Source: a virus. From it: DNA of 64,000 nt. A program made the position numbers and the translations under genes. Shown here piece after piece: positions 56,090-59,157 of this stretch; position 1 is the first letter of the stretch, and each line of letters opens with the position of its first letter. The stretch spans positions 64,001 through 128,000 of IMG/VR virus record IMGVR_UViG_3300021399_000004. One strand, 5' to 3'. The notes beneath the pieces were generated by a model. That model saw only the letters and a list, made by a program, of their open reading frames with translations. It was not told where the DNA came from and made no database searches.

Positions 56090-56428
56090 TTACTGTTTAA
56101 GGATTTAACTAATATTTAAACATCTAACTAATATTTAAACATTTAAGAATAAAATTCATCGCTGGAAGAGTTGATTAAAAACTGTAAAATAAAGTCAAGC
56201 GCGCAAAAATTATAATAGTTAAGTTCGTCAAATAAGGTCTTAATTTCACTTATTATGGCACAGATTTTAAAATAGAATGCGATGGCTACTGGTAGATAGG
56301 TGTAATAAAAAGATTTCCTTGATAATATATTTTTCTAACTGTGGGTGCTATCTTGGAAATGATATTATATTATAGTTTACAATTATTGTTAATTGAGTTT
56401 TGGGAAAATTAAATATGTTAAGATTAGA

Positions 56429-56448
56429 TTAGATGTCTAAACATCTAA
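56429..56448. repeat. 20-bp palindrome, copy 35/38
   Basis: Arms exact, centre CTAA. Confidence 0.95.
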
Positions 56449-56690
56449 CATGAAATAGTTAAATGTTGTAAAATTTTATATTAGTTGAGGGGGAAATGAA
56501 TGATATTTAAAATTAATAAAATATTATATAGATATGGGAATTGATTATTTGAAAATTTTTATTCCAAATAAAATAGCATTGAAAATGAAATATGCCCAGC
56601 TCGCATATAATTATAAAAATAATATTTTTTCTTCGGTCGATGCAAGCAGTTGGCGATAACAAAATATAATAATAAATGATAATAATAATT

Positions 56691-56719
56691 ATTATACCAC
56701 ATTTTGGGATAAAAGTCAA
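56691..56719 (-). promoter_or_regulatory. SigA-type promoter without a downstream gene
   Basis: TTGACT-17-TATAAT. Confidence 0.55.
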
Positions 56720-56727
56720 GAGACTAA

Positions 56728-56747
56728 TTAGATGTTAAAACATCTAA
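56728..56747. repeat. 20-bp palindrome, copy 36/38
   Basis: Arms exact, centre TAAA. Confidence 0.95.
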
Positions 56748-56926
56748 CTTGAAAATGAAATTGTAGGATTTTAAATTAGGAATTTTTATAATTTTATTTG
56801 AATAATAATTTAAAATAAAATTATGTTATTTTGCCAGCTCGCATTATTATGTTTATAGGAAAACATTCTTCGTTAATAATATTAAGTATCTGATATGAAA
56901 AGAAAATAAAATTAAAGATATTATTT

Positions 56927-56955
56927 ATTATACCACGTTTCAGGAAAAAAGTCAA
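56927..56955 (-). promoter_or_regulatory. SigA-type promoter without a downstream gene
   Basis: TTGACT-17-TATAAT. Confidence 0.55.
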
Positions 56956-56963
56956 GTCTTAAA

Positions 56964-56983
56964 TTAGATGTTTAAACATCTAA
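56964..56983. repeat. 20-bp palindrome, copy 37/38
   Basis: Arms exact, centre TTAA. Confidence 0.95.
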
Positions 56984-57182
56984 CTTGGAAATGAAATAAG
57001 ACTGTTATGGGAGAAAATTTTTTATATATTCAACTTATATATTTTGTCTATTTAAAAATAAAATAATAATGTAATTAAAATAATACGAGCTTCAGCTTGC
57101 ATATCATTTCGGGTTTTACTCTTGCTTTCGTGGATCAATGATAACATTTGAAAACTAAATTGAAATCAAAAAGTAATTATCT

Positions 57183-57211
57183 ATTATACCATATTTTGGG
57201 AAAAAAGTCAA
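57183..57211 (-). promoter_or_regulatory. SigA-type promoter without a downstream gene
   Basis: TTGACT-17-TATAAT. Confidence 0.55.
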
Positions 57212-57219
57212 CCTTAAAA

Positions 57220-57239
57220 TTAGATGTTCAAACATCTAA
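57220..57239. repeat. 20-bp palindrome, copy 38/38
   Basis: Arms exact, centre TCAA. Confidence 0.95.
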
Positions 57240-58145
57240 CTTCAAAATGAAATAACATCTAACTAAATATTTAAACATCTAACTAGACATATAAATATTA
57301 AAATAATTTAAAACTGCTTTAAGAATTTTAGGATTATGGCAAATGAAAAGAACATTCCAAAATAAAATAGTGATTGAAATGAAATTAACATTTAATATTT
57401 GGGATTTTTATTATTTAATTTTATCTAAGAGAAAAAATAGTGCTAGAAAATAAAATTATATTAAATTTTTAGAGTAAAAATTATTTCAAAGACATCTAAC
57501 AAGGCAGATGTATTATGGGATCTATAGTTGTAATATTTTGTTATATAAAAATATTACAATTAAATTTCAAATTGATAGAATTTAAAGAGTGCTTTCAGTT
57601 TTATTTTTAAAATATAATTATGGGTTTTGGTCTGTTTAAAAATATATTAATAAAAATAAAATAAAATGAAATGAAATTAAATCATGATTAATTAAAGTTG
57701 TATACTATTTAATTTATTATATAGAATTTATACTTCATTTTAAATTTAGAAGTTTTAGGACTACTATTATAAAATAAAATGAATAGAAAAAATAAATAAA
57801 ACAAAACGAAATTAGAATTAATTTTAAAATACTAATTTACATTATAATATTGGGATTTAAAAGATAGCATATTAGTTATAATTTTTAAATATTTTATAAA
57901 ATGAAATTGTAAAAATTTAGTTTTGGGTTTTTTCTTTTTCTTTTTTTAATTCTAAAAAATATTTAAAAATAAAAATGAAATTATAGGATTAAGCAAAAGG
58001 TTTAAAATAATTATTTTTTTATAGTTTTTAAAAATGAAATTGTGTTTTGGGATTTAGCATTTTTTTTATAATCTTAATAAAAATAATAAAAATAAAATAA
58101 AATTACTTTACTATGTTTTGATTTAACTATACATTATTTTACTGT

Positions 58146-58515
58146 ATATTATATATACACATATATGTATATACATATGTATATATGTATATATGTATAT
58201 ATGTATATGTATATGTATATATGTATTATATGTATATATGTATGTATATATGTATACATATATGTGTATATGTGTATATATATGTATATGTATATATGTA
58301 TATGTATATATGTATATATGTATGCATGCATTATATGTATATGTATATGTATATGTATATATAGACTTGTATAAATATATGTATATACATATAAATATAT
58401 TTGTACATACATGTATATATAAGTATATTTAATTATATGTATATATTTATGTATACTTACATCTAACTATGTATAAATGCATAAAAAGATCTATATGTAT
58501 ATATGTATAAATATA
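58146..58515. repeat. Degenerate (TATATGTA/TATACA)n microsatellite-like array
   Basis: Almost pure TA/TG alternation. The track ORFs here are low-complexity artefacts. Confidence 0.85.
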
Positions 58516-58590
58516 AATAATTATCAATATTTTTATTTATTTATATGTAAGGAATGAATAAATATATTAATAATCATAAACAATATACAT

Positions 58591-58622
58591 AATAATAATA
58601 ATAATAATAATAATAATAATAA
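58591..58622. repeat. (AAT)10 trinucleotide repeat
   Basis: A perfect AAT run. Confidence 0.9.
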
Positions 58623-59157
58623 AAATCTTTTATTGTAAAATCTATCATTATTATAAAGCGACAAATATTATAATGTTTATTATAAATATTAATATTACTT
58701 ATTATATTTTGATTATTTAATTTATTTTAATTAGCAGCTGCGAAAATTTTATTAATAATATATTATTATCGCTGATCTATTTATCTCTTGTTCATTAATA
58801 TATTATAATAACTCACGTGCCTGACACTGGCTATGTATAAAGTTAAGAAACTTTTCCATAAAGGCGCCCTTCCTACATAGTTCTTTGAAGAAGAAGAAGA
58901 TGAATAACTAAATAATCTTAACATCTAAAAAGATACATCTAAAAATTCTGAGTTTGTTTAGCTCTTTTATTTATAAACATAAAGTAGCTTGCTCTTTTGG
59001 ATATAAATGTAATGTGGCTTATCGGTTATTGTTAGATGTGTTAAAAATTATATGATGGTTATTTTTCAGCTCGTTTTTAGATCATTTTTTATTGCGACTT
59101 TATTCAACTGTATATGCACACATCTAAATAATGAGTTAGAAGAACCATACAAAAAGT

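Follow-up and report, generated by a model that had tools for sequence, protein, structure and literature searches.

What is a 3-kb stretch of extremely AT-rich DNA without genes doing in the genome of a phage? The stretch in question, hereafter the island, lies at positions 56090–59150 of a 64,000-nucleotide (nt) window, i.e., positions 64,001 to 128,000 of the IMG/VR virus record IMGVR_UViG_3300021399_000004, whose sequence is identical to ENA ERZ28612961 scaffold_147 (129,144 nt). The phage is a large, uncultured, TAG-recoded virus of the sheep rumen, distantly related to SPbeta and Geobacillus virus E3. The island sits at the upstream ("head") end of a ~19-kb array of small gene cassettes, most of them on the minus strand. 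With moderate confidence, we read it as a fast-evolving non-coding spacer at the head of this array, enlarged by duplication, cassette decay, and slippage, in which only promoter/operator modules are maintained.

The cassette array and the gene-less units at its head

The array is marked by 38 palindromes of the form TTAGATGT-N4-ACATCTAA between 38135 and 57239, against 0.04 expected in the window. A cassette consists, in this order, of a palindrome, a sigma-70-type promoter, a short 5' untranslated region (5'UTR), often with a hairpin, a Shine-Dalgarno (SD) sequence, a small gene, and a GC-rich terminator. The palindrome itself, AT-rich and of 8+4+8 nt, is distinct from the terminators, which are GC-rich hairpins located upstream of it. 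Downstream of 35 of the 38 palindromes there is a minus-strand promoter resembling TTGACx-17-TATAAT, and the gap between the palindrome and the -35 element falls into four classes: 7–9 nt (9 cases), 17–19 nt (19), 28–30 nt (4), and 36–39 nt (3). The gaps are periodic at 10–10.25 bp (vector strength R = 0.87; the maximum among 5000 random draws was 0.55), and hence the palindrome occupies a constant face of the helix relative to RNA polymerase. Such a placement is expected of an operator whose regulator contacts or blocks polymerase, and the phasing implies face-of-helix-dependent control of ~35 early promoters by one putative DNA-binding protein, whose predicted target reads TTAGATGTTTAAACATCTAA. 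A scan of IMG/VR for the palindrome returned nine single chance matches and no arrays.

The features of the island and its borders are as follows.

55634–56040, minus strand: last gene-bearing cassette (the first as counted from the head), with promoter at 56040–56012, gene at 55654–55968, and terminator at 55634–55647
56070–56089: palindrome of this cassette, the left border of the island
56080–56146: 3.5 copies of the 19-nt direct repeat AAACATCTAACTAATATTT (79% matches), one operator half-site in each
56090–56428, minus strand: U0, a decayed cassette with promoter TTAACA-17-TATAAT at 56392–56364 and no open reading frame (ORF)
56429–56448: operator palindrome TTAGATGTCTAAACATCTAA of U0
56449–56761, minus strand: U1, ORF-less, with an upstream ATTTCATTTT motif, palindrome at 56728–56747, promoter at 56719–56691, and box ATGCGAGCTGGGC at 56594–56606
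56748–56997, minus strand: U2, ORF-less, with palindrome at 56964–56983, promoter at 56955–56927, and box ATGCGAGCTGGC at 56833–56844
56984–57253, minus strand: U3, ORF-less, with palindrome at 57220–57239, promoter at 57211–57183, and box ATGCAAGCTGAAGCTC at 57087–57102
57254–57295: 2.1 copies of the 20-nt direct repeat AACATCTAACTA, one operator half-site in each
57296–58142: AT-rich stretch with local duplications of 30–50 nt and an everted half-site pair at 57492–57511
58143–58510: (TATATG/TGTATA)n microsatellite
58564–58626: (ATA)n run of ~20 copies, 15 nt shorter in a 95%-identical strain
58801–59150: right-hand segment, with half-sites at 58921, 58935, 59032 (reverse), and 59120
59158–59181, minus strand: intrinsic terminator of a co-oriented GC-rich operon (59197–60782), the right border of the island

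An earlier note, made from the sequence letters alone, had described the region as AT-rich and non-coding, and this description holds. The GC content of the island is 19.5% overall and 12–16% in its core, and the 1-kb bins from 56 to 59 kb (0.235, 0.179, and 0.170) fall well below the remainder of the window (0.33–0.64); with windows of 300 nt, the island is the sole stretch below 25%. By segment, the values are 25.1% (56090–56428), 22.1% (56429–57239), 15.5% (57240–58142), 15.8% (58143–58510), 12.1% (58511–58800), and 28.9% (58801–59150). The only ORFs of the island are low-complexity read-throughs, also under alternative genetic codes. Four combinations of SD and start codon occur in the 3.1 kb, none of them downstream of the orphan promoters of the gene-less units; one SD-led micro-ORF, in the right-hand segment, has lost its start codon in the 95%-identical strain, and no conserved small ORF is supported. 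A six-frame tblastn comparison of the island with the window and 38 related loci revealed no pseudogene remnants, and the A-tracts show no consistent 10–11 bp periodicity.

Three units with palindrome, TTGACT-17-TATAAT promoter, and shared box (at 56594, 56833, and 57087) had been recognized before and are fully borne out as U1–U3; the fourth ORF-less unit, U0, had been overlooked. The promoters of U1–U3 carry a TG extension and match 11 of 12 consensus positions; in each unit, 8 nt separate the palindrome from the -35 element, and the box follows 81–97 nt downstream of the -10 element. The sequence ATGCGAGCTGG is absent elsewhere in the window and in related phages, its other matches being copies of the same lineage only. 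Among U1–U3, the 77-nt scaffold comprising operator and promoter is 83–87% identical (z = 12–14), whereas the interiors barely rise above shuffled sequence (z = 1.4–2.9). This contrast implies that only the promoter/operator part is maintained; the scaffolds may have been kept either by selection or by gene conversion while the interiors drifted. U0 has a weaker promoter than U1–U3, a scaffold 72% identical to that of the cassette at 54311–54413, and a remnant (TTCCAAG) of the cassette 5'UTR hairpin.

Could the orphan promoters express small RNAs, as the earlier note had suggested, or micro-peptides of 7–16 residues that start in the ATG-containing box? The promoters are near consensus, the ATG-initial box is conserved at a constant distance from the -10 element, and relatives do encode very small peptides in short cassettes, e.g., a 19-residue ORF with a strong SD in relative L013 (5901–6074). 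However, no SD precedes the box, the box peptides (15, 7, and 16 residues) are of low complexity, and the interiors are unconserved between units. The orphan transcripts show no stable fold (z-scores from -0.9 to +2.2), the units contain no terminators for them, and no Rfam family reaches the gathering score in the island, where sub-threshold matches to miRNA families fall on the microsatellite only. We consider small RNAs or peptides from these promoters very unlikely.

To the right of U3, the island consists of simple-sequence and otherwise AT-rich DNA. Positions 58150–58363 of the microsatellite form a 214-nt nearly perfect alternating pyrimidine-purine (Py-Pu) tract made up of runs of 77, 105, and 32 nt; no alternating run in the rest of the window exceeds 16 nt. 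A-rich pentamer repeats add to the simple sequence. An nhmmer profile of U1–U3 found no unit copies right of 57296, and what does recur there is short motifs. One of them, said earlier to be present in at least 12 copies, occurs exactly (AAAATGAAAT) only seven times; its 9-mer core AAATGAAAT has 10 copies, and 24 matches appear when one mismatch is allowed. All exact copies in the island are on the plus strand, and two more are found in the remaining 61 kb. Six same-strand AAATGAAAT motifs lie in the AT-rich stretch, at 57377, 57664, 57669, 57899, 57973, and 58032.

Operator half-sites ACATCTAA are also strongly over-represented: seven between 57256 and 59150, against 0.12 expected, with six on the plus strand (57275, 57492, 58459, 58921, 58935, and 59120) and one reversed (59032). 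Their presence had been noted previously, with some coordinates a few bases off; the site formerly placed at 57255 is only the 7-mer CATCTAA (57256), just outside the half-site scan.

The motif AAATGAAAT recurs in the relatives L021, L032, and others that share the operator family, where its position is 20–25 nt right of the start of the palindrome, always on one strand. In both L021 and L032 it forms the tail of the cassette terminator, immediately beside the palindrome. In L021 the motif coincides with the descending stem and T-tract of the terminator of the upstream cassette (minus strand GAAATG...CATTTC, then ATTTT), and a gene-less unit inside the array of this relative contains five amplified copies. 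By its position, then, AAATGAAAT is a scaffold element, the tail of a terminator. The idea of a cassette graveyard is thereby upheld in part: the decay of U0, the AAATGAAAT motif, and the cassette turnover described below point to a partial origin from cassette scaffolds, but right of 57296 the eroded scaffolds amount to short motifs only. The series from functional to eroded cassettes that had been proposed is not supported as a smooth gradient. The most decayed unit is nearest to the genes, followed by three intact ones and then by DNA without detectable unit homology, and much of the length comes from simple-repeat expansion rather than from eroded cassettes.

Reality, divergence, and counterparts of the island

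A trivial explanation would be that the island is an artifact of assembly or a chimera with eukaryote-like simple-sequence DNA. The microsatellite does resemble eukaryotic repeats and gives sub-threshold matches to miRNA families derived from them, and short-read assemblies tend to break in or near it: two short-read contigs end within the microsatellite and two more in the nearby AT-rich DNA. However, JGI contig 3300002641 (3750 nt) is 100% identical to 59520–55771 and contains the island in full. L053, a contig obtained from a second sample, covers 46155–57919, including the left 1.8 kb of the island, where it shows zero differences. Three assemblies under other accessions differ from the right part by ordinary substitutions: ERZ12302852 (98.8% identity, from 60.3 kb down to 58496, ending in the microsatellite), SRR1206671 (98.4%, from 60.3 kb down to 58650, ending in AT-rich DNA just right of the microsatellite), and ERZ27256871 (95%, from 60.3 kb down to 58363, ending in the microsatellite). 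Operator motifs specific to the phage occur throughout the island. The island is real, and an artifact, which the earlier note had allowed for, is next to inconceivable.

The 95%-identical strain differs from the window by 5–6% in the AT core, 2.3% in 58801–59150, and 7.5% in the intergenic DNA of the operon, compared with 6.4% at third codon positions and 0.6–1.5% at first and second ones. Since the divergence of the AT core is close to the third-position and intergenic values, the core appears to evolve at a roughly neutral rate. In the large late genes, the GC content at fourfold-degenerate sites is 16–25%, the same as in the island (12–25%), and hence no selection for AT-richness is needed to account for its composition.

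In IMG/VR, we found 38 relatives with 64–74% identity in the small-terminase-like (TerS-like) protein, on contigs of up to 188 kb. Ten of them share the TAGATG...CATCTA operator family in the same orientation. At the head-of-array position the following was observed.

L016: nothing right of the last palindrome
L013: four tandem operators (84 nt)
L040: ~100 nt of 6–16% GC, containing TATATGTATA
L044: ~280 nt rich in TGTATACA
L021: ~200 nt of palindromic repeats
L034: ~330 nt of mixed repeats

The spacer at this position thus measures 0–350 nt in relatives and has lineage-specific content. In no relative does DNA below 25% GC exceed ~600 nt, and none has an ORF-free gap of comparable size. A further relative with another operator type, L033, has ~35 tandem palindromes preceded by four DnaA boxes, along with a 100-nt AT tract, at the head of its array, and 14 further palindromes before the sigma-like gene; these two gene-less arrays lie at 1400–2290 and 7640–8320. 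The palindromes of the second array recur every 48 nt, which recalls plasmid centromeres such as sopC. Taken together, these sequences mark the head-of-array position as a recurrent hot spot for repeats and binding-site arrays, whose content is unconserved and which can be empty.

If the island is indeed an expanded head-of-array spacer, it would have grown to 3 kb in three ways: a gene-less operator-promoter module was duplicated in tandem (U1–U3), at least one cassette (U0) decayed, and simple AT-rich repeats expanded by slippage or local duplication. What would be maintained are the ~75-nt operator-plus-promoter scaffolds and probably the operator half-sites as well, with the scaffolds preserved either through selection or through gene conversion involving the other 34. 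The orphan scaffolds would give host RNA polymerase additional points of entry and the putative palindrome-binding regulator additional sites, and their transcripts should read into the first gene, because no terminator stands in between. The remaining ~2 kb would be unconstrained DNA that has drifted to the mutational equilibrium of the phage.

Several observations sit uneasily with this expanded-spacer model. L053 shows no difference over 55432–57919 despite a difference of 0.45% across the array. The segment 58801–59150 is less diverged than synonymous sites (2.3% vs. 6.4%, in a single comparison) and may be under constraint, although two 98% strains show the opposite pattern, which makes this weak evidence. 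Although phages as a rule have compact genomes, every sampled strain (at least five assemblies, 95–100% identity) keeps the 3 kb of filler. Gene conversion, selection, and recent duplication leave indistinguishable traces in the scaffolds. AT-rich, alternating Py-Pu or palindromic repeats recur at the head position in several lineages and, together with the clusters of DnaA boxes beside operator arrays in L033 and L040, hint at a selected physical or cis-acting role.

On its own, the island is chiefly a curious feature and does not amount to a new type of genetic element. If correctly read, it would illustrate the amount of unconstrained DNA that a large phage of the headful type can hold while that DNA drifts to the composition of the phage's own synonymous sites. 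It is also a marker for an array of 38 cassettes with phased operators, consensus promoters, and strain-exchanged genes of widely ranging composition. Should the gene-less promoter modules be active, they would offer a handle on the putative regulator of the whole early programme.

Origin, genome-end, and gene-capture readings

A more far-reaching reading takes the island as a functional cis element: a transcription-activated origin or entry region in which the promoters and iterons drive the unwinding or a structural transition of the 2-kb AT tract with its Z-DNA- and cruciform-prone 214 nt, a set of gene-capture slots, or both. We regard this composite reading as unlikely; its components are weighed separately below. 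An origin or entry signal of this kind, if the AT tract is one, would stand out for its size and simplicity.

As a replication origin, the half-site iterons and palindromes would bind an initiator or regulator, and the 2-kb AT-rich DNA would be the unwinding element, opened by negative supercoiling behind the strong leftward promoters. The duplex stability here is expected to be the lowest in the window, and the GC content of 12–16% over 57240–58800 agrees with what is expected of an AT-rich unwinding region. Direct repeats of 19–20 nt with half-sites occur at either end of the orphan units, the promoters point away from the AT core, and L033 combines DnaA boxes, operators, and an AT tract at its array head. 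Clusters of 12 DnaA boxes each are found in L040 (8450–8610), L036, and L047, in the divergent region 1.2 kb from the equivalent position. In these respects the locus resembles iteron- or DnaA-type origins (lambda ori, P1 oriR, oriC), where repeated protein-binding sites adjoin a meltable AT-rich region and transcription is directed away. The island differs from such origins in lacking DnaA boxes, an adjacent initiator gene, and conservation among relatives, and it holds far more AT-rich DNA than an unwinding element needs. The window contains no DnaA-box cluster, with five scattered TT[AT]TNCACA matches in 64 kb, and a scan for TTATCCACA with one mismatch yielded fewer matches than expected and none inside the island. 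Among relatives, a DnaA-box cluster occurs in only 4 of 38, and L016 lacks a spacer altogether, so that an essential element cannot be fixed at this position. The AT core evolves at an apparently near-neutral rate, and the window offers another origin-like region at 35705–36360. An origin within the island is therefore, in our view, rather unlikely. The GC skew in the window tracks the direction of transcription and is uninformative about an origin.

A second functional possibility is a cis signal at the first-entering or packaged end of the genome, be it an injection stop as in T5, a leader as in T7, whose tandem early promoters would engage host RNA polymerase to draw the DNA into the cell, or the boundary of a terminal repeat. 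In support of it, three or four gene-less tandem consensus promoters point away from the AT core, and packaging genes begin 3.2 kb to the right (the TerS-like gene at 62370, then the counterpart of a gene annotated as the large terminase in E3). At the left end of T7, the strong early promoters A1, A2, and A3, of the type used by host RNA polymerase, stand in tandem with no genes between them, spaced by ~125 nt beside a known physical end. The likeness lies in gene-less tandem promoters upstream of, and pointing into, early genes; here their spacing is 236–299 nt, and T7 is not known to have operator palindromes or a 2-kb AT tract. The pre-early untranslated regions of T5 contain repeats, palindromes, DnaA boxes, and the injection-stop signal (10.1101/866236). 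The island, likewise, is an untranslated, kilobase-scale region of direct and inverted repeats and palindromes beside a block of small early genes with host-type promoters, and in some relatives of this phage DnaA-box clusters occur nearby. However, it has no paired DnaA boxes, the window has no cluster of them, and no conserved counterpart exists in relatives: the order of the T5 repeats is kept across related phages, whereas here every lineage differs and L016 is empty. Furthermore, the assembly runs through the island, and the source scaffold ends elsewhere. We judge an entry or end signal improbable.

The gene-less units might alternatively be empty slots, a landing pad into which scaffold-flanked genes recombine so that the array grows at its head. 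Cassette turnover between near-identical strains really occurs. L053 is 99.6% identical to the window over 46155–57919, and next to this region the window carries a gene for a 350-residue PcfJ-like protein (45062–46155) where L053 has a gene of 122 residues (11763–12159). Both junctions of the swap fall in scaffold elements: the conserved 5'UTR, at "...caaaccagaaagg" immediately ahead of the start codon, and the border of the following palindrome. In addition, the intact scaffolds of U1–U3 flank a dispensable interior, and the wide spread (0.32–0.93) of GC content at third codon positions (GC3) of cassette genes suggests varied gene sources: 0.78 in the first cassette gene and 0.90–0.93 in the operon right of the island, compared with 0.32–0.60 elsewhere in the array. 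Against such a role, the conserved 5'UTR element used as a swap breakpoint is missing from the orphan units, and no strain with a gene in a slot was found, L053 being identical there. No recombinase turned up; integrases had no match among roughly 20 proteins scanned, which did not cover every ORF. An integron-like platform has one common promoter, but here each cassette has its own, and the helical phasing indicates that the palindrome is primarily a transcriptional operator. A landing pad is accordingly a faint prospect, on a par with an end signal.

The closest parallel for the turnover itself is provided by the promoter-early stem-loop (PeSL) cassettes in the hyperplastic regions of T4-type phages (PMC2839356, PMC4122927). 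Both systems repeat a composite intergenic motif (~75 nt here, ~100 nt in PeSL) that combines a sigma-70-type early promoter with a palindromic element and flanks small genes of unknown function, with a promoter and a terminator for each gene. Between close relatives of either kind, cassettes have been inserted, deleted, or replaced, and the crossovers fall within the motif. The differences are equally clear. The lineage studied here has an SPbeta/E3-like small terminase and TAG recoding and is not a T4-type myovirus; its palindrome is phased and operator-like, with separate terminators, so that the stem-loop is not the terminator; and recombination between flanking PeSLs leaves a single motif, not gene-less units with 170–230 nt of filler or a 2-kb AT tract.

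As for the operators, a comparable arrangement is known from Bacillus phage SPbeta, where SPBRE operators are bound by the master repressor MrpR (PMC10516654). There, too, a short element is repeated at many early-gene promoters of a large Firmicutes siphovirus, and the present phage is a distant relative through its YonG-like small terminase. However, SPbeta has ~10 sites, compared with 38 plus half-sites here, the motif sequences are unrelated, no MrpR homologue was identified in this phage, and an AT-rich island does not figure in that study.

Neighboring genes, genetic code, and further repeats

Two genes to the right of the island resemble known families.

61106–62428: phage sigma factor-like gene, resembling phrog_5767
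62370–63335: TerS-like gene, matching phrog_3314; the Pfam hit on record is YonG_N

The closest cultured kin of the TerS-like protein, at 23–26% identity, are YonG-like or small-terminase genes of Geobacillus virus E3, SPbeta, and Tsamsa-type Bacillus siphoviruses; in E3, the gene that follows the YonG-like gene is annotated as the large terminase. When 55000–60500 was compared with INPHARED phages by blastn, nothing matched. A genome-collection scan with the TerS-like protein hit one contig only, L068 (4.8 kb), in a metagenome-assembled genome of Candidatus Nanosyncoccus; this is probably misbinning, from which no host can be inferred.

The recoding is apparent from the long plus-strand ORFs that appear at 1–24383, 36367–37788, and from 61106 when TAG is translated as sense, with up to 869, 654, 790, 2109, 691, and 511 residues. 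The coding capacity in ORFs of at least 200 residues then rises from 4081 to 11230 residues. Ten long plus-strand ORFs (1–24383, 36367–37788, 61106–64000) contain 84 in-frame TAGs, whereas the 43 minus-strand early genes end in TAA (28) or TGA (15), never in TAG, and also never contain it in frame. A tRNA gene search of the window found none, hence no suppressor tRNA there.

The small genes on either side of the island (59151–61050 and 55654–55968) have ~60% GC, in contrast to the GC3 of 0.18–0.25 in late genes. Two flanking proteins of 103 residues are paralogues (29% identity) with a common C-terminus WNTN-D/E-x-YW; they match no PHROG family, and a 218-residue protein of the operon matches no Pfam family. 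A 67-residue flanking protein has no relatives in IMG/VR, and metagenome scans for the first cassette protein and the orphan-promoter pattern revealed nothing related (nine unrelated contigs checked). An operon like that right of the island is also present in L013 and L040.

The second non-coding region of the window, 35705–36360, is a point of divergent transcription adjoining a helicase-like gene, the product of which has no close relatives found in IMG/VR. It holds a 120-nt A/T tract, alternating TA/TG runs, and a GC-rich hairpin between the 18-nt inverted repeats AATATAATTATATAGTTG and CAACTATATAATTATATT, and these features make it another candidate for the origin.

Not all cassettes of the array run the same way: a few at its left end (38170–38960, 42412–43460) are on the plus strand, and the palindrome at 38135 serves a plus-strand promoter. 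After the -10 element, two types of 5'UTR can be distinguished, one with the hairpin GTTCC-N-GGAAC and the other with the motif GTGAAGGAAAACACYTCAAACCAGAAAGG (e.g., 56012–55969 and 46180–46147). All 10 copies of the sequence GAAGGAAAAC are on the minus strand.

Finally, CCAGCT(T/G) repeats are clustered at either end of the array (37995–38052 and 55360–55389), within transcribed units that seem to be non-coding, and also in L044 (6720–6790). One cluster has five copies with a 9-nt period, the other three copies of CCAGCTGG with an 11-nt period. The left cluster adjoins three ATTTTCACTAC repeats at 37930–37990, and the box GCCAGCTCGCAT of the orphan units resembles the CCAGCT(T/G) repeats.

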